A model generated the notes under the pieces. The model was not told the origin of the DNA, ran no database searches, and saw nothing but the letters and a program-made list of their open reading frames with translations. A program made the position numbers and the translations under genes. A stretch of DNA of 44,854 nucleotides from a virus (lineage: Duplodnaviria; Caudoviricetes): positions 1 through 44,854 of the IMG/VR virus record IMGVR_UViG_3300027819_000020. One strand, given 5' to 3'. Below are positions 4,504 through 36,612 of this stretch, piece after piece. Numbering within the stretch: position 1 is the stretch's first letter; every line of letters starts with the position of its first letter.

Positions 4504-5147
4504 GGCGCCACCAGCCCGGCCGCAGCGAGCATCTCGGCAAGGTGCTCCCGCCGCCGGTCCCTGGCGGCGGCCCTGGCGGCGGCCCTGGCGGCGTCCCAGG
4601 CGGCGTCCCAGGCGGCGGCCCTGGCGGCGGCCCTGGCGGCGGCCCTGGCGGCGTCCCTGGCGGCGGCCCTGGCGGCGGCCCTGGCGGCGTCCCAGGCGGC
4701 GGCCCTGGCGGCGGCCCTGGCGGCGGCCCTGGCGGCGTCACGCTCTTGCTCGCTCGCCTCACCGGCCAGCCAGCGCCGTTTCGTCGCGATGGCGGCCCAC
4801 GAGCGCGCGTCCGGCTCTCGCCCGGCTTCCCTCTCGCGGAGCAACGCCTGCTCGGCGCACCAGCAGGCAAACTCGTGCAACTCGCGCGTCACGTCACGCG
4901 CGGCCACGAGCCTCCGCCGAGCCGAGACTCCCTTGGTGTCATCATGCGGGCCGTCATCCACGTCCACGATGCAGGCCACCGGCCCCGTCGCATACTGGAG
5001 GGCGTCGAGCCATGATGGTGAGTGGTGGTAGCCTCGCTCGCAGAGCACCAGCGGCCCCGCGATGGTCCGCTCCTCGCCCACGGTCCAGGGCGGCTCATCA
5101 CCCGAGCCTGTAGTCATGTCCGCCCGCAGAAAATGGTAGGCGATCAT
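4500..5147 (-). CDS. phage protein with AARAAA(R/W)D low-complexity repeat
   Basis: MIAYHFL...LCERGYH...DALQYA domain followed by an Ala-rich repeat. Confidence 0.8.
   Translation of the reverse strand: MIAYHFLRADMTTGSGDEPPWTVGEERTIAGPLVLCERGYHHSPSWLDALQYATGPVACIVDVDDGPHDDTKGVSARRRLVAARDVTRELHEFACWCAEQALLREREAGREPDARSWAAIATKRRWLAGEASEQERDAARAAARAAARAAAWDAARAAARAAARDAARAAARAAARAAAWDAAWDAARAAARAAARDRRREHLAEMLAAAGLVAP
4558..4738. repeat. 12-bp tandem repeat, about 15 units
   Basis: Units of ccctggcggcgg / cccaggcggcgt. Confidence 0.9.
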
Positions 5148-13139: not shown

Positions 13140-13576
13140 TGCAGCAGTCGCACTTCCGGCATGGCCCCCGCCGCCAGTCCGGCCCGAATCTGCTCCGTCG
13201 CCAGATCGCCCATCGTCCGATCCCCAGGACCCAGGAGATACGGCAGAAACTCCTGCTCCATGTCCACTAGCCCATCCTCAACCGCCACCAGCTTGGCCTT
13301 GATGTGGTTCAGGAGCACACGCAATCGGCGCCGTCTCTCCTGCTCGCGCTGCTTCGGCGTCAGGGTGTAGCCATCCAGCGACCGAGGAATGGCCAGGTCA
13401 ACGCGGAACGCCAGGCTGCTGCCCTGATACGGCCAGGAGAACTCAAGGCGGATCACGCCCATCGTGTTCGTCCACCTGGTGGCGTCGACCTTGTGGCGCC
13501 GCAGCAGCACCTCAATCTCAGAGAGAGACTCGCCCTCCGAGACAGCCGTACCCTCGTAGTGACGCCGTTGGCTCAT
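13136..13576 (-). CDS. conserved-looking phage protein
   Basis: YEGTAVS...IKAKLVAVEDG....EFLPYL; GGAGG RBS. Confidence 0.75.
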   Translation of the reverse strand: MSQRRHYEGTAVSEGESLSEIEVLLRRHKVDATRWTNTMGVIRLEFSWPYQGSSLAFRVDLAIPRSLDGYTLTPKQREQERRRRLRVLLNHIKAKLVAVEDGLVDMEQEFLPYLLGPGDRTMGDLATEQIRAGLAAGAMPEVRLLQ

Positions 13577-14184
13577 CCCTGCACCTCCGAGATGGCGCGG
13601 TCCGCCTCTCGGGCGACACGCCGCAGGTGCCGCTCCACGACACGCCGCAGGTAGTGGCTGGGCTTCAGGCCGCGCACCCTGGCTTGCTCAACGAGCACAG
13701 CCCACCAGCGGGAACTGATTCGGAGCGCCACGGGGTACGTTAGGTGTCCGCTATGAGGTTCCGGTGGGCTTGGTTCGGCCACAACTCCATGAGAGTGACG
13801 CCGAGATGGGCCATCAGGGTTATCGCTTCCCTCATGCTGGGGAGTGAGCGGCCCGTCTCCCATAGGCTGATCCGCATGCGCGATAGCTCTGTCCTGTCGG
13901 CGAAGGCGCGCTGCGAGAACCCCCGGTTCCTCCGGTACAGGGACAGGTTGTTCGGGAACATCGCCCCGGCAGAGGGCGACATAGAACCCCCTGGCGAGAG
14001 TGAAGATATCGAGCCCGGCCTGCTTTCTGCTGTTACAGGTCCGGCAGCAGGCGACGCGGTTTCCGTCTTCATTCGTGCCTCCAAGGTGGCGAGGGTGAAC
14101 ATGGTCGATGGTGTCCGCTGGGCCGCCGCAATAGGCGCATGTGTAGTTCGCCGTCTCCAGGATAGAACGCCGCGTCTCTGCCAT
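13573..14184 (-). CDS. HNH endonuclease with C-terminal ribbon-helix-helix-like domain
   Basis: CAYCG...TIDHVHP..LGG.....NRVACCRTCNSRK; C-terminal PVALRIS-helix-G-x-x-x-S-x-YLR. Confidence 0.75.
   Translation of the reverse strand: MAETRRSILETANYTCAYCGGPADTIDHVHPRHLGGTNEDGNRVACCRTCNSRKQAGLDIFTLARGFYVALCRGDVPEQPVPVPEEPGVLAARLRRQDRAIAHADQPMGDGPLTPQHEGSDNPDGPSRRHSHGVVAEPSPPEPHSGHLTYPVALRISSRWWAVLVEQARVRGLKPSHYLRRVVERHLRRVAREADRAISEVQG
13740..13961 (-). CDS. XRE/Cro-CI family HTH protein nested in an alternative frame
   Basis: NNLSLYRRNRGFSQRAFADRTELSRMRISLWETGRSLPS...LGVTLMELW. Confidence 0.85.
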   Translation of the reverse strand: MFPNNLSLYRRNRGFSQRAFADRTELSRMRISLWETGRSLPSMREAITLMAHLGVTLMELWPNQAHRNLIADT

Positions 14185-14191
14185 CGTGCCT

Positions 14192-14223
14192 ATGGTATAC
14201 CACGAGCCGGGGAGCGTTGTCAA
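14192..14223 (-). promoter_or_regulatory. sigma70-type promoter, probably leaderless mRNA
   Basis: TTGACA-18-TATACC(AT) with upstream TG; ATG follows 7-9 nt later with no RBS. Confidence 0.6.
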
Positions 14224-14260
14224 GGGGTTTGTTGGGGGCATGGCCGAGTTGAACGGCGGC

Positions 14261-14527
14261 GCAGGTAGAGGCGGGCTATTGCGCGCGCTGCCCCCTCTAG
14301 ACCTAGACCAACTGGCGGGAGCGAATGCCCTCGCCAGTGCGGCGGAACCGTCCGCCGCTTCTCGCCCCCGCGAGAGTTGTGGGCCTGCGGGGAACCTTGT
14401 TCAGGGCTAACCCGCCTACTGCTGGACGACTGGCCAGGTACACCAGCGCCCGAACCGGGGCTATGGGTGGGCGCCTGCGGCCCACGATGCAGGCGCCGAG
14501 GCAGGGTATCCCCTACCCCTACTGGTG
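14261..14527 (-). ncRNA. candidate structured RNA C (two multibranch domains, possible pseudoknot)
   Basis: Many helices found by hand; preceded by TGCTAGAAT; no credible ORF. Confidence 0.6.
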
Positions 14528-14543
14528 GGCATTCTAGCATGGT

Positions 14544-14621
14544 TGGTAGCGGGGGCGGGATTCGAACCCGCGACCTGCGACTTATAAGGTCGCTGCTCTC
14601 AACCGCCTGAGCTACCCCGCA
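14544..14621 (-). tRNA. tRNA with TAT anticodon (nominally Ile), CCA encoded
   Basis: Cloverleaf: TGCGGGG/CCCCGCT, GCTC/GAGC, GCGAC-CTTATAA-GTCGC, GCGGG-TTCGAAT-CCCGC, ACCA. Confidence 0.95.
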
Positions 14622-14625
14622 TCAT

Positions 14626-14718
14626 TGGCCCCCGCGCTCCACTCGCTGCCCGGCTGGTGTCTGCTCCGCCGGGTCCGAGCCCGCTGACAAACTCAATAGC
14701 CCAGGGCCACGGGGGCCA
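14626..14718 (-). ncRNA. candidate rod-shaped RNA B (about 93 nt)
   Basis: TGGCCCCCG/CGGGGGCCA terminal helix; TATACT at 14724-14729. Confidence 0.5.
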
Positions 14719-14728
14719 GGGGCAGTAT

Positions 14729-14920
14729 AGCTGCTGGGCCGGGGGCCACGCTCCCCCGGATGCCTGCTCATGCCCCGTATCTTACGGACTTAGGGGTTGT
14801 CGTTGTCGGCCCGGTCGCGCTATCCGTCGCGTTGACCGGCCTACCGGAGCAGGCTCCACGTCTTTCTGGGCCACCTACCTGCGCAGGCTCCCCAGCAATC
14901 TCTTCTGCCACCCAGCAGCC
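14729..14920 (-). ncRNA. candidate multibranch RNA A (about 190 nt)
   Basis: GGCTGCTGGG/CCCAGCAGCT closing helix with internal helices; TGCTAGACT 6 nt upstream. Confidence 0.6.
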
Positions 14921-14960
14921 GACCCCAGTCTAGCACAAAGCAAGACGCCCCCCGATGTGC

Positions 14961-15089
14961 TCACCGCCAGACTGCCCACACCACCACGAGCAGCACGAGC
15001 AGCCCCAGCAGGTACCAGCCCATGCCCGAGGTGCCGGCCCACCACGCCAGCCGCGCGACCGGCGAGTCAGGCGCCGCGAGGGGCGGCAC
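14961..15089 (-). CDS. small membrane protein
   Basis: ...WYLLGLLVLLVVVWAVWR. Confidence 0.45.
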   Translation of the reverse strand: MPPLAAPDSPVARLAWWAGTSGMGWYLLGLLVLLVVVWAVWR

Positions 15090-15091
15090 GT

Positions 15092-15295
15092 TTACCCTGC
15101 CAGCTTCGCCTTGCCCACCATCGCGAGCAGGGCCACAGCAGCAGCGCGCACGCTACCAGCTCCGAGCGAGATGGCCCAGAGCTTCCAGTCGGCGACCTGC
15201 GCCGGGTCGAAGTCCACGAGCACCTGAAGCAGGCTCGTGGAGACGGCGATCAGCACCGCCCAGAGTAGCTCCTGCCCCCATTTCCAGTTGTACAT
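15092..15295 (-). CDS. putative holin
   Basis: 67 aa, two TM helices, basic C-terminus, AAGGAGG RBS. Confidence 0.65.
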   Translation of the reverse strand: MYNWKWGQELLWAVLIAVSTSLLQVLVDFDPAQVADWKLWAISLGAGSVRAAAVALLAMVGKAKLAG

Positions 15296-16440: not shown

Positions 16441-16929
16441 CTAGCTCCCTATCGCGAGCACATACGCCGTCACGGTTACAGTGCCAGCACCAGCCTTGTA
16501 GATACGCACCGCCGCCGAATTGGCCCAGACGTTCTCAATATAGCATCGGAGATCAGCCGCTCCAGTGTAGCGCACCGACGCAAACGGGAATATCGCCCCG
16601 CCTAGTTGGGAGTTCTCGATGAATGGGACTACTACCTGAGTGTAATCGTCGCCCGCCGCTGCCACCGCTGCCGAGCCGCCCGCGACCGTATTGTTCCCGG
16701 ACCAATATATCCCGGCGTTACGAGCACCAGCAGGTATCCCATGCACCCCAGAAGTGCGCGCCGAGTGCTCGAAAGCGACGCCGGACGCCGTATAGGCCCG
16801 CGCGCTGTTCGCCGTGATCCCCGCGTGGAACGAGCTGGCATTGAACGAGATGAAGTTGTTCCAGTAGCCGAAGGGGAGGATCGAGCTTGCGGTTACTGCC
16901 GAGACGGCGCTGTAGTCATATGCTGCCAT
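16441..16929 (-). CDS. minor tail / receptor-binding protein
   Basis: Follows the tail-tip gene; beta-rich; ends VLAIGS. Confidence 0.65.
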   Translation of the reverse strand: MAAYDYSAVSAVTASSILPFGYWNNFISFNASSFHAGITANSARAYTASGVAFEHSARTSGVHGIPAGARNAGIYWSGNNTVAGGSAAVAAAGDDYTQVVVPFIENSQLGGAIFPFASVRYTGAADLRCYIENVWANSAAVRIYKAGAGTVTVTAYVLAIGS

Positions 16930-16940
16930 GTGCCCCTACC

Positions 16941-18659
16941 TCACCAGATCAGGATGCCCCGGTCGAAACCCGGCCCCACGTCGAACCGGAAGAAGTCGCG
17001 CCCACCGGCCTGAACCAGGCTCTCCGTGAGAAACCACGTCGATACCACGTCGATGCCCTCAGCCGCCTTCGGCCGGATCGTGTCCTGGATCGCTGCCAGG
17101 TGATAGCGCCCGTAGCGGTTCGGGGCGTCCTCGGGGTCGCCCAGCCAGGGGTCCCAGTTGCCATCGTCGTACCGCACCTCAACGCTGTCGCCGAGCTGGG
17201 CGTCCACGGTCATGGCCGGGTCATTGGCGAACGTCACCTTCGGCGTGGCCCGGCTCGGACCGCGCGTTAGGACAATCTGCGTCGCCAGCGAGCCCGCGAG
17301 TCCACGGTCCTGGACCAGCTTGCTGCTCACCTGCTCCGGCTCCATCTGCCGAAACTCGGCAATGCTGCCATCATGCAGCCGCTCGTCAATGATGGCGAGC
17401 TGGGCGTCCATGACGGTGCCGCGAATCTTGAGCGTCTGGACCCAGATAACTCCGGTGTCAGTGTTCTGCAGATTGAAGTCGGCCGAGGCCCCATAGGCTA
17501 CGAAGTTGGGCGCCAAGTTCCCCGTCTTGTCCGCGCCGCTGCCGTCCTCGTTGGCGCTGGCCGTGTAGTCCGTCGTCGCTACCGGCGTCGTCACGGCGCT
17601 GGCCGGCCCCGTGTAGGCCACGTGCAGCGGGATGTACTCCCCCGGCTCCATGCGAATGGGCACCTGCTGATCCTGCAGGCTCCAGAGCGTGCTGGGGCTG
17701 CCCTGCGGCTTGTACGCCTGAGATTGCACCTGGGCGATGTTGCGCAGGTCGTCTATGCTGATCTCCTGCTCCTCGGAAAACATCTCGGCCCCGAGCGTCT
17801 GTTGGGCCGCCCAGGTGCCAGAGCCCTTCGAGCCGGCGCCAATGCTCCGCGCGGCCGTGTACTCGTGGTAGCGGCTGTGCACCACTACGGTGCCGTCGCC
17901 ATCGACGAAATACGACGCACCATAGGCGCTCACGATCTCATCGAGCGCCGCTTTCAGCGTCGAGCGGTCCCACCATGCGTAGGGGATGATGTCGCTAATG
18001 CTGTCAATGCTCCGGGCAATAAAGGCTAGCTCCTCATTGAACAGCGGCGCATTATCGAAGCCATTCCACGCGCCTTGCATATCGAACGTGAACCACAGGT
18101 TAGGGGAGTATTTGAGAATACGAGCCTGATTCAGAATGGTTCCAATGAGAGTATCCACCGCAACGTTGGCCTGCATCGCCAACGAGAACTTGATGCGCTC
18201 CATCTGCTTCATGGCGTCGCTGGCGTAGATGACGCAGGTCTTATCCCCGCCGGGGCTCGTGCGGGTTATCATGCGGTCAATCCAGCCAGTGAAGCGCCGA
18301 TAGACCGTGTGGGCATTGAGTATGTCGATGCGCACCTCGCGCTGTGGCCGCAGGTAGGCGAGCCACGGCTGACCAGACTGCTGGTCAGGCACCAGCTCGC
18401 TGCCGTCGCCGACGAGGATGCTATAGCGGTTCCACGGCGAATACAGGCCGTCGTCGTTGGTCAACTCGATAACGGCCTGCCCAGCCGCGAAGCCGCGCGT
18501 GATGCTCGACTTCCCACGGGAGTAGCGCACGCTGATAACGTGGTCACTGACATCGTTCAGCCGGGCCGAGCTGGGGTTGAGGCTGCCGCTCGTCGCCGCA
18601 GGACGGCTAAACGTGCCGTCATTGCCCCAGTCGATGCGGACCCTCAGCTCGTAGGCCAT
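16941..18659 (-). CDS. tail tip / baseplate hub protein
   Basis: Follows the tape measure gene; VRIDWGNDGTF, SRGK, LTNDDGLYSP, RFTGWI. Confidence 0.75.
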   Translation of the reverse strand: MAYELRVRIDWGNDGTFSRPAATSGSLNPSSARLNDVSDHVISVRYSRGKSSITRGFAAGQAVIELTNDDGLYSPWNRYSILVGDGSELVPDQQSGQPWLAYLRPQREVRIDILNAHTVYRRFTGWIDRMITRTSPGGDKTCVIYASDAMKQMERIKFSLAMQANVAVDTLIGTILNQARILKYSPNLWFTFDMQGAWNGFDNAPLFNEELAFIARSIDSISDIIPYAWWDRSTLKAALDEIVSAYGASYFVDGDGTVVVHSRYHEYTAARSIGAGSKGSGTWAAQQTLGAEMFSEEQEISIDDLRNIAQVQSQAYKPQGSPSTLWSLQDQQVPIRMEPGEYIPLHVAYTGPASAVTTPVATTDYTASANEDGSGADKTGNLAPNFVAYGASADFNLQNTDTGVIWVQTLKIRGTVMDAQLAIIDERLHDGSIAEFRQMEPEQVSSKLVQDRGLAGSLATQIVLTRGPSRATPKVTFANDPAMTVDAQLGDSVEVRYDDGNWDPWLGDPEDAPNRYGRYHLAAIQDTIRPKAAEGIDVVSTWFLTESLVQAGGRDFFRFDVGPGFDRGILIW

Positions 18660-21600
18660 CTAGCTCCAGTCCCGCTCCCGGACGATGTACTGGTGGACCA
18701 ACTTCGCGAAGTCCTGGGCGTCGCGGTCGGTGCCCATCATGGCGCCGACATGCAGATGCACCTCCGGGCCTGAGCCAGCCCGACCCGAGCGGGTGAGCAT
18801 GGCCGTGTCGGCGGCAGGCACCACGCGAGAGCCTGACGGGAGCGAGACAAGCTCGGGCCCCAGCTCGCCTACGCGCACCATGCCGCCAGTCTGAAATGCA
18901 GGCCGCGACGCAACCTGTACGCGGCCACCCACCTGGAAGCCGCCCGTCTGCTCCACAGATGTGAATGCCTCAGCGAAGGCGTTGCTCGCCACGATCATTT
19001 TGGAGATCAGCTCTTGGTAGCGCCGCTCGGCAGACTCCAGGTTTTTCATGGCCTCGTCGGTAACGGTGGTCATGAAACTCAGAGACTCGGTCAGCATGTT
19101 CGAAATGGCCTCATCAACCATCTGGGCCTGCTCCTCCGAGAGGAGGCCGGTTTTGAGCATCTCCGGCCGGAGCTTCGCGTGCCACTCGATGCCGGTCTTG
19201 ATCGCATCGGACACCATGTCATGCGCCCGACGCGCCTTGGCCAGTGCGATCCCCACCTGCTCCTGCTGCTCGGCTAGCGCCTGCCCGGCCGCCTGGAGCG
19301 CACGCACGACATCTTCCTGCGCCCGGATCGCGGCCTCGTTGGCCCGCAGCTCCCCCTCCAGCCGGGCGATGTTGGCGTGCGTCGACTGCACCTGGGCCAT
19401 GGCGGCCTCGAAGCTCATCTCCGGCTTCGCAGGCGTTGCGGCGGCCTGGATCTGACGCATGAGCGGGTCGTTCGCCAGCGAGCGTTCCAGTTGCGCCGCC
19501 TCGCGCAACGACTCCAGTTGCTCGCGCGTCATGCCGGCGAACTGGGGCGGCGTACCGGTGACGGGCTTGCCCGTGATCTCGGCCAGCCGCAACCGCTTCA
19601 ACTGCTGCTCGATCTCGAACTGCGATTCCTCAAAGGCGCCTTGCCCGGTCAGGCGCACGCTGGCGAGGTCCTGGAGCCGCGACTTGGCCTCGCCCAGCTC
19701 CTTGTTCAGCCGGCTCTGTGTCTCCTGGAGCTTCCGCAGGGCTTCCTGAGCGTCGCGCACGGCCGCCGAGTTGGCCCGCATGGCTGCCGTTAGGCCAGCC
19801 TGCTCCGCCTCCAGGCCAATGATCTGCATGTTGATGCCCTGAATGACGGGGGAGGTCGTCACCATGGCGTCGGCCAAGCGGCCCACGTCGAGAGAGGCAG
19901 TCTTGAGCGCGCCACCGCCGCCGGCTGCACCGGAGAGCCCGGCTAGGGCCGCGTTGACCTTTTCCAGGCTGTTCTCGTACTCGCGGGCGGGAGCCTCACC
20001 GGCTGCCACCTCCTCGTTGAGGCGCTTCCACTCTTCGAGCGCGGCGGTAGCTGCCGCGTCGCCCTGCTGCATGTCGGAGATGATCTGGTCGAACGGGTTG
20101 CTAGGGCCGGACATGCGCTCGTCGAGTTGAGCCAGCGCTGCGTCGATCTCGTCTATCGTCGTTGGCAGCCCACTCCCACCCAACGTCTCCTTCATGAGCG
20201 GCCCCGGTCCGATAGGGCCGAACTGCGATTCGATGAGGCGGCGCTGGGTCAGGAGCTCCGCCGCGCGTCTCTGGGCTTCCTGCCGCCGCTCGGTGACACC
20301 AAAGGCATCCTCTAGCCCGCCCAGCATCTCCTGGCCGAACTCGCCCGGCCCCAGCATGCCCTTGCCGGTCAGAACGCGGGATAGGTTCATCGCAGCGAAG
20401 GAGGCCGCCCCAATGGCGCCAATGACGAGGCCGATCTTGCCCACAGCGGTAGCGGAAAACGCTGTGATCGCCCCGGACAGTGCCGCGAATCCCCGAATCG
20501 CCAGCCCGATGCCGATGAGGAGCGGCCCACCCGCGGTGAGAGTCAACGCCAGCAGGACGATCTTGGCCTTTCCCTCCTCGCTCATGCCGGTAATGGCCTG
20601 CTGCAAGGCCCGCGTGGCGCCGATAGCGCGCGGCATAGCCACTTGGGCCATGTCCAGGAGGCTAGCCATTACCTGATTCCGCAGGATTTCGGACTGGAAG
20701 GCGAAGGACTTGCTCTGCTCATCCAGCGCCACTTTCGTCGAGCCGCTCGCCGCGCTCATGTCGGCTAGCATCTGGTTGAAGAGGGTGCCACCGTCCTGGG
20801 TCAGGCTCAGCACGCCGCGCAGCGCCCGCACGTCGCCGGTGAGGACGGCAACGGCCTCTTTGCTCCCAGCCGTCTTGCTTATCATGTCGTCCAGCACGCC
20901 GATAAGGCCCTTCGATGCAAGAGCCTCGGCGTTCCACTCTAGCCCCAACGCCTTGGCCAGCTTCTCGGCTTCCTTGCTGGGATCCAACAGGGACAGCATG
21001 ACACGGTTCAGACTGGTCGCTGCCTCTGCCGCGTTGATGCCCCGGCGCGTCATGGTTGCCATCGCGGCACCCAGTTGCTCAAGGGGCACGTTCAGAGCGG
21101 CGGCTGTGGGCAGGGCTTCGCCCATGTGCTGTGCCAACTCCTCAAACGTCAGGACGCCCTTGTCCACGGTCTTGAAGAGGATGTCGCTTGCCTGGTCGGC
21201 TGTGTAAGCAGCCTCACCGTAGGAATTGAGTACGCCAGTAATCACGCGGGCTGATACGGCCGTACTCGTGAGTCCAGCACTCGCGGCCCGTGCCGATGCC
21301 TGCAACACTTCGACGGCTTTGGCCCCTGCGAACCCGCTCGACTCGATGTCGTAGAGGCCGCGCGCCAGCTCGACGGCGGATTGCGGCAGACCCTTGCTCA
21401 GGTCTAGCACGGCCTTCCTCATGGCGGCCAGGTCGCGCTCCGACATTTTCGCAATGGAGTTGACGTTGCGCATCGCCCGGTCGAAGTCGATGGCGACCTT
21501 CGTCGCCATGCCTCCCATGACGGCAAGCGGCGCCGTCGCGATGGTCAGCGACTGGCCGATAGATGTGAGAGAGCGGCCAGCCCGCTCCAACCCGGCGAGC

Positions 21601-21698
21601 CCACGTTGGGCCTGCCCGAGGCCATGCTCGAACTGACGCAGCGGCCCCGAGAACGCGTCGGCGACGCGCAGGGTGATGGTGGTCGTGCGGTCAGCCAC
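18660..21698 (-). CDS. tape measure protein (TP901-type)
   Basis: 1012 aa helical protein; FDRAMRNV, ELARGLYDI, GELGPELV. Confidence 0.95.
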   Translation of the reverse strand: MADRTTTITLRVADAFSGPLRQFEHGLGQAQRGLAGLERAGRSLTSIGQSLTIATAPLAVMGGMATKVAIDFDRAMRNVNSIAKMSERDLAAMRKAVLDLSKGLPQSAVELARGLYDIESSGFAGAKAVEVLQASARAASAGLTSTAVSARVITGVLNSYGEAAYTADQASDILFKTVDKGVLTFEELAQHMGEALPTAAALNVPLEQLGAAMATMTRRGINAAEAATSLNRVMLSLLDPSKEAEKLAKALGLEWNAEALASKGLIGVLDDMISKTAGSKEAVAVLTGDVRALRGVLSLTQDGGTLFNQMLADMSAASGSTKVALDEQSKSFAFQSEILRNQVMASLLDMAQVAMPRAIGATRALQQAITGMSEEGKAKIVLLALTLTAGGPLLIGIGLAIRGFAALSGAITAFSATAVGKIGLVIGAIGAASFAAMNLSRVLTGKGMLGPGEFGQEMLGGLEDAFGVTERRQEAQRRAAELLTQRRLIESQFGPIGPGPLMKETLGGSGLPTTIDEIDAALAQLDERMSGPSNPFDQIISDMQQGDAAATAALEEWKRLNEEVAAGEAPAREYENSLEKVNAALAGLSGAAGGGGALKTASLDVGRLADAMVTTSPVIQGINMQIIGLEAEQAGLTAAMRANSAAVRDAQEALRKLQETQSRLNKELGEAKSRLQDLASVRLTGQGAFEESQFEIEQQLKRLRLAEITGKPVTGTPPQFAGMTREQLESLREAAQLERSLANDPLMRQIQAAATPAKPEMSFEAAMAQVQSTHANIARLEGELRANEAAIRAQEDVVRALQAAGQALAEQQEQVGIALAKARRAHDMVSDAIKTGIEWHAKLRPEMLKTGLLSEEQAQMVDEAISNMLTESLSFMTTVTDEAMKNLESAERRYQELISKMIVASNAFAEAFTSVEQTGGFQVGGRVQVASRPAFQTGGMVRVGELGPELVSLPSGSRVVPAADTAMLTRSGRAGSGPEVHLHVGAMMGTDRDAQDFAKLVHQYIVRERDWS

Positions 21699-23946: not shown

Positions 23947-23955
23947 AGTCTAGCA
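23947..23955 (-). promoter_or_regulatory. extended -10 promoter TGCTAGACT
   Basis: One of four TGCTAGANT copies upstream of non-coding leaders or RNAs. Confidence 0.6.
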
Positions 23956-25108: not shown

Positions 25109-25762
25109 CTACACCGCCACCAGGTCGGCCCGCACGTTGACCCCGAACGTCTCCGGCATCTCCGGATGGTGCGCCCTCCCAAGTGTCACCAGGGCCGTAT
25201 GGGCGTCGAAGCGGTAGCCAACGGCGTACCCTGCACTGGTCACCCCGCCGTCCGGTCCCCGGAGATAGGAGAAGGAAGAGGGGACCAGGTATCGAACGTG
25301 CGTCGGGTCTTGCATGGCCCCCCAGGTGAACGCGTATGGGGAGATGACGCAGCACTGGCCGCCGGGGATCAGCACGCGATGCACCTCGCGGAAGAAGCGG
25401 AACCAACCGTCCTCCTGGGTGCTCACTCCCCAATGGTGATGCCAGACATGCGGCGAGCTTCCCGGCTTCTGCCATGGTGTCTGTTGCCACGTGGACTCCA
25501 TAACCTCGTGCGGGATGTGCTCGGCCAGGTGGCAGCACATGACGTACCCGACGCTGTGGTCCCTGATTGGCCAGGGAAAGCGGAACAGGTTGCAGATGAC
25601 CGAGACTCCCTCGTCCCGCGCCAGGTCCAGGTTGACCCAGCCCTCGCTCTCCGGCAGCACCACCTCGCCACTGCCCAGGTTCAGCTTCGGCCCCGGCGGT
25701 ATCTCGGCGGCGCTGGGCCAGCCCTCGATGTGCTGCTCCAGCTCTGCCCAGCTACGGGACAT
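25109..25762 (-). CDS. SAM-dependent methyltransferase (glycan-cluster type)
   Basis: KLNLGSG..GWVNLD, HLAEHI, EVHRVLIPGG, QDPTH. Confidence 0.9.
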   Translation of the reverse strand: MSRSWAELEQHIEGWPSAAEIPPGPKLNLGSGEVVLPESEGWVNLDLARDEGVSVICNLFRFPWPIRDHSVGYVMCCHLAEHIPHEVMESTWQQTPWQKPGSSPHVWHHHWGVSTQEDGWFRFFREVHRVLIPGGQCCVISPYAFTWGAMQDPTHVRYLVPSSFSYLRGPDGGVTSAGYAVGYRFDAHTALVTLGRAHHPEMPETFGVNVRADLVAV

Positions 25763-26777
25763 ACTGCCCGTACACCTCGCGCAGTCTCGCACCGATGGCC
25801 TCGTGCCCAAACTCATGGCGCGCCCGATCCTCGCACCGCCGCGAGCACTCGCGCCAGAGCTTCGCCTCACCAAGGATCGTGTTGACCGTGTCCCGCAGCA
25901 GATCCCAGCGACCAGCCGGAAAGAATGGCACGAACCCATGATCGTACCGATAGCTCATGTGCACCGTCGGCACAATCTCGCGGAACGCCCCGCTGTCGCT
26001 CGTCACGATCGGCGTACCGCAGGCCATCGCCTCGATGCTCACGACGCCGAACTGCTCGATCCACGTCGGGGTCGAGATCGAGGGCATGACGACGATGTCG
26101 GCCGCGTTCATCAGCGCGACCAAGCCCGGCCCATGCTCAAGCTGACCAAGCACCCCCTCTAGCCACGGGCCGTCATATCCTCGCGCCGGTCCATAGACGC
26201 TCTCCGCCCACTCGCGCATCGGGCCATCGCCGGCCAGCGCAACGCGCCACTCCTGGCCCCGGCAGGCGTACGCGAGGTCCATCAGCCCCTTCTCCCATGT
26301 GAGCCGCCCGACGTACAGGACGCGCCGCCCACCAGAAAGGCGCCGCTCGGCCAGGGGCCGGAACAGCGTCGTGTCCACGGCCGCCGGCACGATATGAATG
26401 CGCTCCCGCTCGATCCCGTAGGTCGCGATGCACTCGGCAGCCATCTGGCTCCGGGGGATGAATGCACGGACTCCCGCGAGCATCCTCGCAGCAGCCGGGC
26501 TCCAGTAGTTGAACGGGATGTTCTCCCAGATGGTCGCCACGCACTTGCCCGGCCAGCGCTCGACGGCCTCCTGTGCCCAGGGGTACATGAGGTCGGCCAC
26601 GTCGTAGAGATCGGCGCCGTCCAACTCCTCCAGGCGCTCATACTGCCGGTAATCAGCCCAGGGCTGGGGCACGGTACCGCAGAACTCGTGAGTCCAGCCG
26701 TCCACGTCGAAGCCCGCCCAGGTCATGCGGTCCGTGGGGTTGGCGTGCCGGTCTCGGATCACGCGGAGCAGGGGCAT
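25752..26777 (-). CDS. glycosyltransferase family 4
   Basis: VDTTLFRP, YVGRLTWEKG, EQFGVVSIEAMACG. Confidence 0.95.
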   Translation of the reverse strand: MPLLRVIRDRHANPTDRMTWAGFDVDGWTHEFCGTVPQPWADYRQYERLEELDGADLYDVADLMYPWAQEAVERWPGKCVATIWENIPFNYWSPAAARMLAGVRAFIPRSQMAAECIATYGIERERIHIVPAAVDTTLFRPLAERRLSGGRRVLYVGRLTWEKGLMDLAYACRGQEWRVALAGDGPMREWAESVYGPARGYDGPWLEGVLGQLEHGPGLVALMNAADIVVMPSISTPTWIEQFGVVSIEAMACGTPIVTSDSGAFREIVPTVHMSYRYDHGFVPFFPAGRWDLLRDTVNTILGEAKLWRECSRRCEDRARHEFGHEAIGARLREVYGQYVP

Positions 26778-27583
26778 CAGTAGCCGACGTAGACCTGCGT
26801 CGATTCGGGCACGATGTGCTCGTTCCATCGCCTGTGGAACTCGAACGAGTTGGCCATGAACTGCCGCGCGTGACGCATCGCGTCGCCCGGCGTCTGAGTG
26901 TGCGCCACGGTGCTCTGGCCCACCAGGTGGACGAACTCGGCTTCCGGGCAGTACCAGACCTCGCGGCCCGCCGCCTTGACCCGCTCGCAGTAATCCACGT
27001 CCTCGAAATAGGCTCGCGGGTAGGCCACGGCATCGAACCCGCCCAGCTCATGGAACAGCGAGCGCGGCGTTGCCATGACGGCGCCCGTGATCCATGAGAC
27101 GGCGCATTCTGAGCCCACGATGCGATGATCGCCCGGCCAGCCCAGGTAGCGGTGATAGGGGCCTCGGCCAGCATCGTACTGCCCACCGCATGACTGGACC
27201 TTGCCGTTGGGAAACAGCAACTTCGGCCCCACGATGCCGGACCCGGGGTGCCGCTCGAAGCAGTCGAGCACCGCCTGGCACCAGCCGGGCCGCGCGAATG
27301 CGTCGCTGTTGATGAACACGAGGATGTCCCCCTGGGCAGCCGCCGCGAGGGCGTTGCAGTTGCCGCCGTAGCCCAGGTTCTCGGGGTTGCGCTGGCAGCG
27401 GAGGCCCGCCGTGAACCAGTCGCGGCAGTCGCAATCCGGAGAGGCATCGTCGCCAACGATGATCTCGGCCATGCCCTCGGGCACCGTCGTCTGGAGGTGC
27501 ATGACGCAGCGCATGGCGAGGGCGAGTTGGCCATACACCGGGACCAGCAGCGAGAGACGCGGGCCAGTGCCCCGGCTATCCAC
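26777..27583 (-). CDS. glycosyltransferase family 2
   Basis: VGDDAS, NLGYGGNCN, FINSDA, GGFD...YFEDVD. Confidence 0.95.
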   Translation of the reverse strand: MDSRGTGPRLSLLVPVYGQLALAMRCVMHLQTTVPEGMAEIIVGDDASPDCDCRDWFTAGLRCQRNPENLGYGGNCNALAAAAQGDILVFINSDAFARPGWCQAVLDCFERHPGSGIVGPKLLFPNGKVQSCGGQYDAGRGPYHRYLGWPGDHRIVGSECAVSWITGAVMATPRSLFHELGGFDAVAYPRAYFEDVDYCERVKAAGREVWYCPEAEFVHLVGQSTVAHTQTPGDAMRHARQFMANSFEFHRRWNEHIVPESTQVYVGY

Positions 27584-27806
27584 CCCGATACCCTAGCTCG
27601 CCTCTCGCTACCGCTGCGATAACCTCAGGAGGCGCTCCATCCAGGTGGCCAAGCAGAATCTCTGGTCGGTCCGATCCATGATGCGGTTTGTGCACCCAAC
27701 CATATGGCACCGCCCCACACAGGCAATAACTCCCGTCCGACGGCTCGCCACGCCATATCCGCCGATGAAGTTCGACTGGGTCGTCAGCCACCCTAGCCCC
27801 GCTCAT
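27576..27806 (-). CDS. hypothetical protein
   Basis: Coupled ORF inside the GT cassette. Confidence 0.5.
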   Translation of the reverse strand: MSGARVADDPVELHRRIWRGEPSDGSYCLCGAVPYGWVHKPHHGSDRPEILLGHLDGAPPEVIAAVARGELGYRGG

Positions 27807-28324
27807 CCACGCGCCTGCTTCCGCTGTGCCTCGCTGATCCGCGCCCAGAGCAACACAGCGCCGTACAGGTGCACCTCGGCGCGCCATGTCCTGCGGCGAC
27901 TCACGAGCACCGGGGAGGGCGCCTCGCCTGGTCGCCGCGATGGCTCCATGCGCCACTCGCTCGTGTCGATGAGCACGTCATGGAGTAGCATCAAGGACGG
28001 AGAGTAAGAGCCCCCAAGAGCGATGTCCGCCGCCCAGAAACTCGACATCTGCGGGGCTGGCGGCAGCAGGTACGTGCCAGCCCACCGCATGCGCGCGGCG
28101 ATCTCCTCCGGCACGATAGGTCCGTGGGTCCGCTCATCGGCCGCGAAATCGAGCACGAAGGCAGCGTCACCCTCGGGCAGGCCATCCGGTGGGTCAGGGT
28201 CGGTAGGCCACGGCTTGACGCTGGCTTCCCCTACTCCGAGCGGCGGATCAATAGGCCGGGACCATGCGTCACGATATACCCATTGGCCGTCTGGGGTTGC
28301 ATGTCCACCATGAATCTCCGGCAT
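27803..28324 (-). CDS. hypothetical protein
   Basis: MPEIHGG...; coupled to the GT4 stop. Confidence 0.6.
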   Translation of the reverse strand: MPEIHGGHATPDGQWVYRDAWSRPIDPPLGVGEASVKPWPTDPDPPDGLPEGDAAFVLDFAADERTHGPIVPEEIAARMRWAGTYLLPPAPQMSSFWAADIALGGSYSPSLMLLHDVLIDTSEWRMEPSRRPGEAPSPVLVSRRRTWRAEVHLYGAVLLWARISEAQRKQARG

Positions 28325-29568
28325 CACACCAGCGCTCCTATCCCGAGCGGCACGGCACCGTCTCGCGCCACGATCTCCGTCAGGTAGTCCGATCGCTGCT
28401 CCACGACCTGCCTCAACACCGCCTCCACAGCGTCCGTCGCCCTGTCCCACGTGCGCTGCGCTGCCCACAGCCGCCCAGCCTCACCCATGCGCTCGCGCTC
28501 AGCCCGGTCGTAGTAGAGCCGGTTCAGCGCCTTGACCAGCGCGGGGATATCCGGGTCCGCGTCCATGGCGTTGCCCCAGGTGCCGTAGCGCATCTCGGGC
28601 TGGCGTGGTACGAGCACGCCCCGGCCCTCCTGCATGACCTCGGTCCCCGAGCACCAGTCAAGGGCGAACGATGGCAGCCCCATGGCCATGCCCTCGATGA
28701 GCGGCAGGCCGAAGCCCTCGCGGTAGCTCAGGACCCCGTGCACGTCCATGAGGCCGTAGCGCTCCCGCAGGTCCACGATGCCCCTCGCTGCCAGGTCGGG
28801 ACGATAGAGCACCTGCTCGTCACGGAGGCCGATCTCCTGCTGGAGCCCCCGCGCATCGTGTGGCGCCAGCCGTGTCAGCTTCCAGCCACCGGGCCCGGCC
28901 TTCTCCATGTCGAGCAGTAGCCGTGCCCCCGGCTTGTCGAGCGCGAAGTCGCGAAACCCCTCCATCGTGCTCGGGATGTTCTTACGCCCCTGATTCATCG
29001 CCGCCATGCCCACGACGAACGCGTCCGGGGCGATGCCCGCTCGCCCGCGTAGGTGCGCCCGCTCCTCTGGCGTGAACGGCCGGAACCGCTGCGAGTCCAC
29101 GCCGGGCGGGCAGTGGTAGGCATGGATGCCGCGTTTGCGCAGAGCTTCGACGCCAAACTCGGAGATCACCATCGTCGCGTCGGTGACCTTCGACAGCTCC
29201 ACCCATTCGTCAAATACCGGCTCGCCGTCGATAGGCGTGATCGTCACCTGCCTGATGTGCTCCCAGTCGATCCGGCAATCGCGGAACAGCGAGACGCTAT
29301 ACGGGTAGTCCTGGCAGCAGACCACCACATCGGGGCGCCGGTTGTCCGGGCCGAACCGGAGCGTGTTCGCCACCTCGGTACAGAGCGCCCACAGGTCGGG
29401 GACGTTCGTCGGCCAGACGTGGAATCCCAGGTTGTGCGGCCAGCCGGAGTACTGAATGCCTACGCCGGCGACCTGGTGGCCGCGCTGAATCAGGCGCTTG
29501 CAGACCTCATTGCCGATGCGTCCGAAACCGCTCTCGGCCACAAGATCGCCCACCCACAAGATGTTCAT
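28324..29568 (-). CDS. glycosyltransferase family 4
   Basis: MNILWVGD...SGFGR, NQGRKN, EGFGLPLIEGMAMG. Confidence 0.95.
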   Translation of the reverse strand: MNILWVGDLVAESGFGRIGNEVCKRLIQRGHQVAGVGIQYSGWPHNLGFHVWPTNVPDLWALCTEVANTLRFGPDNRRPDVVVCCQDYPYSVSLFRDCRIDWEHIRQVTITPIDGEPVFDEWVELSKVTDATMVISEFGVEALRKRGIHAYHCPPGVDSQRFRPFTPEERAHLRGRAGIAPDAFVVGMAAMNQGRKNIPSTMEGFRDFALDKPGARLLLDMEKAGPGGWKLTRLAPHDARGLQQEIGLRDEQVLYRPDLAARGIVDLRERYGLMDVHGVLSYREGFGLPLIEGMAMGLPSFALDWCSGTEVMQEGRGVLVPRQPEMRYGTWGNAMDADPDIPALVKALNRLYYDRAERERMGEAGRLWAAQRTWDRATDAVEAVLRQVVEQRSDYLTEIVARDGAVPLGIGALV

Positions 29569-29855
29569 TCGTGGCCCACCGGCCCGTAGGCTTCCAATGG
29601 TCGCCATCCCCCATTCTGACCTCGGGTGAACCCCTCATAGTGGATCTGTCCTGATGCGGCCCATGCGGATACGTTGCTGTACCGCGTTAGCCCCCGGTAA
29701 TCCCATGGCCACCCTGCGAGCCCTGGGCCATGCAGCGCCTTATGATGCTCGATCTGGCTAGCCGGGTAGACCGGATTGCCGGGGCACCTCATGCAATGGA
29801 CCGGCGGCTCCTCCGGCGTTTCCGTAGGAGATGTTGGCTTGCGGAAGATGTTCAT
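29565..29855 (-). CDS. hypothetical protein
   Basis: Coupled at both ends. Confidence 0.6.
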   Translation of the reverse strand: MNIFRKPTSPTETPEEPPVHCMRCPGNPVYPASQIEHHKALHGPGLAGWPWDYRGLTRYSNVSAWAASGQIHYEGFTRGQNGGWRPLEAYGPVGHE

Positions 29856-36348: not shown

Positions 36349-36612
36349 CTACGTCAAAGCAGACTCTAGCACCATGACTGGCCCCTGCGCAAGCCGGGCC
36401 AGCAGCGCGGCGGCCACGACGGGCAGCGATGCCTCAGTTACCGTGGCCTCCAGGAGCTGGGCCAGGGGGACAGCGATCTCGTGATTCTCGCCATGATGGC
36501 GGGCGCGGAGCACCAGATGACCAGCGCTAATCATCGCGACCGGCAGCAGACATGGCGCCGTGGGCAATGATCCGCGCGCGGGGAGAGTCGCCTCGCAGCG
36601 CAGCGCGGTCAT
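36349..36612 (-). CDS. hypothetical protein
   Basis: ATGA-coupled to the MuF stop. Confidence 0.55.
   Translation of the reverse strand: MTALRCEATLPARGSLPTAPCLLPVAMISAGHLVLRARHHGENHEIAVPLAQLLEATVTEASLPVVAAALLARLAQGPVMVLESALT

Follow-up and report, generated by a model that had tools for sequence, protein, structure and literature searches.

Stable RNAs to which no role has been assigned have long been known from the tRNA regions of phages, among them RNAC and RNAD of T4, GOLLD and ROOL. GOLLD is one continuous, cage-forming RNA of more than 400 nt with a conserved 3' region. HEARO, or omega RNA, is a structured RNA that lies directly upstream of an HNH gene, the protein IscB combining a PLMP domain with a RuvC domain split around HNH, while the tRNA-associated HDV-like (theta) ribozymes fold into a nested double pseudoknot with a catalytic C and sit at the 3' side of the tRNA. 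SegB of T4 is reportedly a homing endonuclease for the tRNA region of that phage. Two reports describe T4 RNAC and RNAD as small, non-coding and late, encoded in the tRNA region and of unknown role (PMC3014915; PMC9697503), and others state that GOLLD linkers can hold tRNAs (10.1101/2024.12.08.627333; PMC6582537) and that HNH genes occur in mycobacterial tRNA clusters (PMC6582537). As for tRNAs with the anticodon UAU, one paper describes them as generally missing in prokaryotes, which use a lysidine-modified CAU tRNA instead (PMC8007984), and another describes an unmodified tRNA-Ile2(UAU) in Mycoplasma mobile and the poor charging of UAU by IleRS of the E. coli type (PMC3575796).

Here we describe a phage locus in which a tRNA(UAU) gene is accompanied by two well-bounded predicted RNAs, A and B, and a weaker candidate, RNA C; A is the strongest of them and B is backed by one variant. 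The locus adds uncatalogued candidates to the RNAs listed above, and they stand out by their unusually well-predicted 5' ends and by their origin in a phage of a likely Chloroflexota host.

Genomic Setting of the Island

The window is the whole stretch of DNA analyzed here, a tailed-phage whole assembly of 44,854 nt (44.9 kb) with an estimated completeness of 85%, in which the terminase, portal, head, tape-measure, primase, Bet-like and methylase genes all lie on the minus strand. Between a stop at 14961 and the ATG of the HNH gene at 14184, the minus strand contains a gene-free gap of 776 nt (14185-14960), the biggest in the ORF map, other gaps of 300-630 nt being present elsewhere in the genome. 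An earlier, sequence-only reading had called this island free of credible ORFs, and the codon usage agrees: on a score built from the phage genome, the nine candidate ORFs inside the gap lie between -0.09 and -0.43, while the reference ORFs, 32 in number, range from 0.12 to 0.48 except for one that overlaps the primase gene in another frame. The order of elements that it had given for the minus strand is also confirmed, namely TGCTAGACT at 14935-14927, TATACT at 14729-14724, the tRNA at 14621-14544 and TGCTAGAAT at 14539-14531. The island lies 3' of the small ORFs that close the virion operon and 5' of an operon of HNH and helix-turn-helix genes. In the direction of the minus strand, its features and flanks are as follows.

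14961-15295, minus strand: two small hydrophobic ORFs at the end of the virion operon, upstream of the island; from the ORF map, with no match in the family scans, Pfam among them
14927-14935, minus strand: extended -10 element of RNA A, TGCTAGACT, predicted +1 at G14920; TGCTAGAnT motif, of the same type as before host stable-RNA genes
14729-14920, minus strand: RNA A, 192 nt, predicted multibranched fold with an 11-bp closing stem; from folding against shuffles, the closing-stem test and a repeat; no Rfam family
14724-14729, minus strand: bare -10 hexamer TATACT at the junction of A and B, a doubtful internal promoter, predicted +1 at G14717; hexamer only
14626-14717, minus strand: RNA B, 92 nt, with a 10-bp closing stem, a hairpin (14673-14649) and a candidate pseudoknot (14689-14683/14664-14658); from the fold, the closing-stem test and a variant contig of run X7
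14544-14621, minus strand: tRNA gene, anticodon UAU (Ile2 type), with A73, an encoded CCA and a U1-U72 mismatch; ARAGORN, and Rfam RF00005 at 67.3 bits
14531-14539, minus strand: extended -10 element of RNA C, TGCTAGAAT, 4 nt past the CCA of the tRNA, predicted +1 near A14523; TGCTAGAnT motif
14255-14523, minus strand: RNA C, about 270 nt, a predicted chain of hairpins; from folding and the closing-stem test; no Rfam family
14194-14223, minus strand: promoter-like site of the HNH operon, TTGACA-N18-TATACC, after RNA C; sequence motif
13573-14184, minus strand: HNH ORF, with an HNH domain at residues 16-55; Pfam

The predicted +1 positions follow from the usual spacing of 6-8 nt after a -10 element. 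The host likely belongs to the Chloroflexota, as judged from the relatives of two proteins: the three nearest Atlas clusters of a 399-aa hydrolase-like protein are mostly from this phylum, and among 80 terminase relatives listed in genomes seven are Chloroflexi or Dehalococcoidia records. A reading of the island as an attP site was discarded, as no integrase family was found among the 44 and 43 ORF translations scanned from this 85% complete record. Elsewhere in the genome, the virion operon includes a block of glycosyltransferase and methyltransferase-like genes (25109-29607), collinear in the loci L139, L141 and L146-L148, which possibly serves virion glycosylation, and a 12-nt repeat array at 4509-4785 codes for the Ala/Arg-rich tail of a DUF7666-like ORF.

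Family and Homolog Searches

When cmscan was run with Rfam on the genome and on each module, only the tRNA scored, and A, B and C matched no known family at the gathering threshold or at E ≤ 10. The GOLLD model (RF02032) had no match on the genome at E ≤ 10, nor did ROOL, OLE, manA or other Rfam family models have a match. No tmRNA was called by ARAGORN or passed in Rfam, and SRP domain IV, tRNA-Sec and common riboswitches, whose motifs were compared by eye, found no Rfam support.

Homologs of the modules were absent from INPHARED and PLSDB, from pattern scans of IMG/VR, from 129 UAU-tRNA loci and from 63 related virus records (13 capsid-related and 50 of the 80 terminase-related ones). BLAST against Chloroflexota (401, 301 and 301 genomes) returned none, and covariance models built from the single sequences gave 0, 2 (chance hits) and 0 in 150 Chloroflexota genomes each, a silence that is weak evidence. 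Those weak hits that were inspected lay in apparently coding or unrelated contexts, two further ones being checked against Rfam only, and a metagenome scan returned only an identical copy (L009), which adds nothing. Among collinear phages, the closest are represented by fragments that stop short of the island region, and the sole variant sequence of any module is a partial contig of B from run X7; the contigs of this run and of run X6 are flagged as probably DNA, so no use is made of the depth of the X7 contig or of the fact that it ends close to the 3' end of B. RNA C is covered in none of four runs, from which nothing follows. The blanks in the homolog searches limit the evidence rather than show absence. 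The literature searched holds no description of the locus and turned up no RNAs of Chloroflexota phages; a match could exist among the 10,006 viral candidate RNAs of PMC10690425. As orphans, A, B and C remain candidates.

The tRNA(UAU) Gene

The tRNA is a real gene, of a type that is rare but known. Its cloverleaf, UAU anticodon, A73 and CCA are present, and the 1:72 pairing of elongator tRNAs is absent (U-U). Such a mismatch has precedents among phage tRNA(UAU) genes, eight of 111 being mismatched at 1:72 and three of these 111 carrying U-U, in a set of 120 IMG/VR UAU-tRNA loci (114 distinct, 111 parsed) out of about 1500 matching stretches. If accepted by the host IleRS, the tRNA would decode AUA with no modification by TilS. 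Its presence is not explained by codon supply, since AUA makes up only 18 of the 385 Ile codons of the phage and since TilS is present in all five Chloroflexota genomes tested. Half of the counted AUA codons (9/18) fall in three tail-region genes upstream of the island (16441-21698). Recent capture from a host was rejected as an origin, because the tRNA(UAU) genes of Chloroflexota, found in 10 of 301 genomes, share only 50-57 of 78 letters with the phage gene.

Several tRNA genes were also seen at other loci. In L130-L137, a group of related phages, a lone tRNA(UAU) lies just 5' of an apparent terminase large-subunit gene (at about 1500-1575 in most), and in the tRNA(UAU) of L138 (619-693) the body is initiator-like and the first base unpaired. 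An array of 29 tRNAs adjoins a related terminase in L263 (3826-8348), and a permuted tmRNA is called near another in L215 (11437-11841).

Promoter-Like Elements

The statement in the sequence-only reading that each module stands behind its own -10 element holds for A and C, which have host-type extended -10 elements, and is weak for B, which has a bare hexamer. The exact motif TGCTAGAnT has four copies in the genome, none of them on the plus strand; base frequencies predict about 0.2 copies per strand. Outside the island it is found at 36371 and 23955, only before two virion genes, 89 and 109 nt ahead of a head-protease gene and a tail-region gene; since the motif was defined from the island copies, only these two serve as a test. 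The general form TGnTAnnnT shows no genome-wide excess (13 copies on the minus and 10 on the plus strand, compared with 11.2 expected), and the island holds two copies compared with 0.17 expected. Among 25 stable-RNA genes of Chloroflexota, comprising 16 of 19 6S hits, 4 of 5 RNase P hits and 5 tmRNAs and including several near relatives, TGnTAnnnT ends at most 20 nt from the 5' end in 12, and the 66-nt upstream window contains it in 14 of the 25, as opposed to 154 of 5000 random windows (3.1%). Because the same type of extended -10 precedes host stable-RNA genes, the elements of A and C are credible as host-type promoters.

A strict sigma-70 promoter scanner made no call in the island. The TATACT before B has neither a TG extension nor a recognizable -35 element, and its two sites in the genome are about what base composition predicts; the other copy (7493) has TTGACA 17 nt upstream. 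The hexamer also precedes two of four host RNase P genes, and the copy at B could be due to chance, leaving it doubtful as a promoter.

Some further sequences near these sites were noted. The leaders behind the two TGCTAGAnT sites outside the island share a 24-nt element (about 23912-23889 and 36323-36300, minus strand), a candidate late translational operator. The word CCAGCAGTAG occurs inside RNA C (14425-14416) and right behind the -10 element at 23955 (23945-23936), and a one-letter variant of it lies at the start of RNA C (14528-14519).

Start-Anchored Stems and Folding of the Modules

It had further been claimed that the ends of each module pair just after its -10 element. This is borne out for A, with 11 bp, and for B, with 10-11 bp; in C the best closing helix starts at the 9th nt and is 8 bp long, which 16% of random positions also achieve, and so is at chance level. 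Over 1500 random positions, a closing stem of at least 11 bp was obtained in 0.5% and one of at least 10 bp in 2.3%. At six other promoter-like sites of the phage the stem is at most 6 bp, and in 23 related-phage loci 4 of 508 promoter-like sites reach 10 bp. The claim of three folded modules likewise stands in part. RNA A folds better than all of its 200 shuffles (z -3.56), a value flattered by the choice of its 3' end at the closing stem, and C is modest (z -2.06, 5/200 shuffles as good), while the fold of B is no better than chance (z -1.40, 22/200). In windows of 100 nt, 5.7% of 299 across the genome reach z < -2; within the island only the tRNA and parts of C pass, and the windows of A and B do not.

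These statistics bear on two alternatives. According to the first, the stretch apart from the tRNA is a GC-rich spacer that folds by chance, as its GC content of 67-74%, the behavior of B against shuffles and the missing homologs would allow. This is very improbable in view of two closing stems at predicted starts, each expected by chance in 0.5-2.3%, of the z-score of A, of two rare promoter 9-mers within 400 nt and of the pattern of changes in the X7 contig described below. The second takes the whole stretch as one large ornate RNA with an embedded tRNA, similar to GOLLD or ROOL. Its size of about 700 nt and its place beside a phage tRNA would fit, tRNAs are known in GOLLD linkers (10.1101/2024.12.08.627333; PMC6582537), and cross-module helices of 11-13 bp can be drawn if G-U pairs are included. 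We nevertheless consider it quite unlikely: RF02032 and the other large-RNA families have no cmscan match, a strong promoter element directly follows the tRNA, the whole region reaches only z -2.18 (20 shuffles), and A and B close locally.

RNA A

The 11-bp closing stem of RNA A begins at the 7th nt after the -10 element, and its partner strand ends at 14729, where the hexamer of B starts. A shorter form (14928-14790, z -1.19), which starts inside the promoter spacer, was dropped in favor of the 192-nt form. RNA A contains an 18-nt direct repeat (14857-14840 and 14891-14874) that permits alternative pairing: 14769-14762 is a possible partner for either copy, and a hairpin with a UCCG tetraloop is a further option for the second, which suggests a switch.

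Two host RNAs were rejected as identities for A. A 29-nt likeness to host RNase P RNA (E 0.001) is of a score reached by 10, 107, 87 and 157 of 300 shuffles, and the type A RNase P model RF00010 has no match on the phage genome. As to 6S RNA, RF00013 has no match and A, when aligned to two host 6S RNAs, scores less than shuffles do on average; moreover, 6S RNA is a long rod with a central bubble, whereas RNA A is predicted to be multibranched.

RNA B and Its Variant

The closing stem of RNA B, 10-11 bp long, starts at the 6th-7th nt after the -10 hexamer and ends at 14627-14626. In run X7, a 166-nt contig is identical to the window over 53 nt in the 3' part of B (14629-14681); the next 31 nt contain six substitutions and a 1-base deletion (14682), 30 loose letters aligning to 14683-14712. 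By eye, pairs of the inner fold as computed are lost through the changes at 14690, 14692 and 14698 and through the deletion, the change at 14709 disrupts the ninth pair of the closing stem, and that at 14697 falls on an unpaired base. As the variant breaks the three-way fold computed for B, this fold was abandoned. At 14685, again judged by eye, the change creates a U-A pair at what is otherwise the sole mismatch of a 7-bp helix, formed by 14689-14683 with the hairpin loop at 14664-14658. The variant fits a pseudoknot or an alternative helix in B; in the window sequence, the nested form of this helix costs 7.1 kcal/mol. It is a single contig with a one-sided change, which is not covariation, and could be a recombination junction. 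No Rfam ribozyme family matches B or C.

RNA C and the tRNA as a Possible Sole Product

In RNA C, a terminal GC hairpin without a U tail (14299-14266) has a rival in a long-range stem (14417-14408/14278-14269), the form with this stem lying 3.9 kcal/mol above the minimum. In its strongest window, C has the better score on the plus strand (-4.7, as against -3.0 on the minus strand), and a terminator scan called nothing in the island.

These properties are relevant to the possibility that only the tRNA is functional, A and B being discarded pieces of its leader and C a terminator or attenuator that insulates or tunes the HNH and helix-turn-helix operon. The strong hairpin at the end of C, whose 3' strand can pair long-range instead, has the layout of a terminator and antiterminator, the best hairpins of C fold on either strand, and homologs of the modules were not found. 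A tRNA leader would, however, need neither 300 nt nor two start-anchored closing stems, the HNH operon has a promoter-like site of its own, no U-tailed terminator was called, and in the X7 contig the 3' part of B is unchanged while its 5' part differs. On balance, this explanation appears unlikely.

Relation to the HNH Gene

The suggested link between the RNAs and the adjacent HNH gene is unsupported, because this gene has its own promoter-like site and lacks the IscB domains: Pfam finds only the 40-residue HNH domain in the protein and no RuvC or PLMP family. Its nearest clusters are plain HNH proteins, all below 0.9. The strict scanner leaves the promoter-like site uncalled, as it lacks a T at position 6. 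An XRE helix-turn-helix gene (13961-13740, minus strand) lies entirely within the HNH ORF, in another frame, and the end of the HNH ORF resembles a ribbon-helix-helix protein by eye, with no Pfam match; the overlap region possibly represents three small genes or a frameshift.

An association of the island with the HNH protein, in transfer or in function, either as the cargo of a homing endonuclease following the precedent reported for SegB at the T4 tRNA region or, much less likely, as a guide RNA, is improbable. The adjacency would suit it, and a distant relative (G010, 72% complete) shares the tail and lysis genes in weak tblastx matches, with neither an island nor an HNH match between them; mycobacterial tRNA clusters contain HNH genes (PMC6582537). 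The short HNH domain and the separate promoter-like site argue the other way, as do the lack of a repeat-spacer layout and of an Rfam match for an HNH-associated RNA.

A Possible Stable-RNA Unit

The sequence-only reading had proposed undescribed phage RNAs beside the tRNA, which is supported by the lack of an Rfam family, the host-type promoters of A and C, the start-anchored stems of A and B and the one variant of B. We give about an even chance to the reading that the island is a small stable-RNA unit whose separate late RNAs A, B and C act in trans by shape, likely as protein decoys. Host sigma-A polymerase would transcribe A, B and the tRNA from the first extended -10 element and C from the second. 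RNase P cleavage and 3' trimming are established in bacterial tRNA processing; here RNase P would cut at the 5' end of the tRNA, trimming would proceed back to the closing stems, and A, B and C would be released by host processing as separate stem-protected RNAs. Late timing is inferred because the same 9-mer precedes two virion genes. A shape-based action in trans on proteins is favored, as A and B have no gene to regulate in cis and as the phage holds no long antisense match to them.

In this stable-RNA unit, A, B and C would, as decoys or sponges, sequester host proteins that bind or cleave RNA late in infection. This is the weakest step and, even if the RNAs are real, a tentative one that we rate below even; it is reached by analogy and by exclusion, in that there is no ORF, no long phage antisense match and no gene under A or B. 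Two specific modes were dismissed, a CsrB-type sponge, as GGA counts of 4, 3 and 2 are not above the genome rate, and antisense action on phage mRNA, where the best match is 14 nt (E 0.03). A bolder version would make A, B and C three new RNA classes forming an all-RNA counter-defense unit of Chloroflexota phages, with B as a catalytic or ligand-binding RNA, compact and pseudoknotted, that lies 4 nt upstream of the tRNA and controls the release of the latter; this is a long shot. At 192 and 92 nt, A and B are of a size that allows direct transcription, probing and testing, and for B there is a variant-based structure prediction.

Comparison with Known Systems

Like the tRNA-Ile2(UAU) of M. mobile (PMC3575796), the phage tRNA combines a UAU anticodon with A73 and would read AUA without lysidine. 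It differs from that case in that the host phylum keeps TilS and in its U1-U72 mismatch. Compared with the theta ribozymes, RNA B sits 5' of the tRNA rather than on its 3' side and has one candidate pseudoknot. With HEARO, or omega RNA, and IscB, the island shares a structured RNA directly upstream of an HNH gene, from which it is set apart by the short HNH domain, the promoter-like site of that gene and the lack of an Rfam match.

The earlier comparison with GOLLD applies to the location, in a phage and near a tRNA, and fails on the family, since RF02032 has no match. As with GOLLD and ROOL (10.1101/2024.12.08.627333), a gene-free structured stretch lies beside or around a phage tRNA; unlike in these, no Rfam family is matched, the modules close separately and there are internal promoter elements. 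From T4 RNAC and RNAD, to which no homology was found as no T4 record matched in the phage collection, the island differs in having one tRNA rather than a cluster, in belonging to a 45-kb GC-rich phage and in its host-type extended -10 promoters. With RNAC and RNAD (PMC3014915; PMC9697503), it has in common that it is encoded in a phage tRNA region, and it is like these RNAs that the island most likely works.
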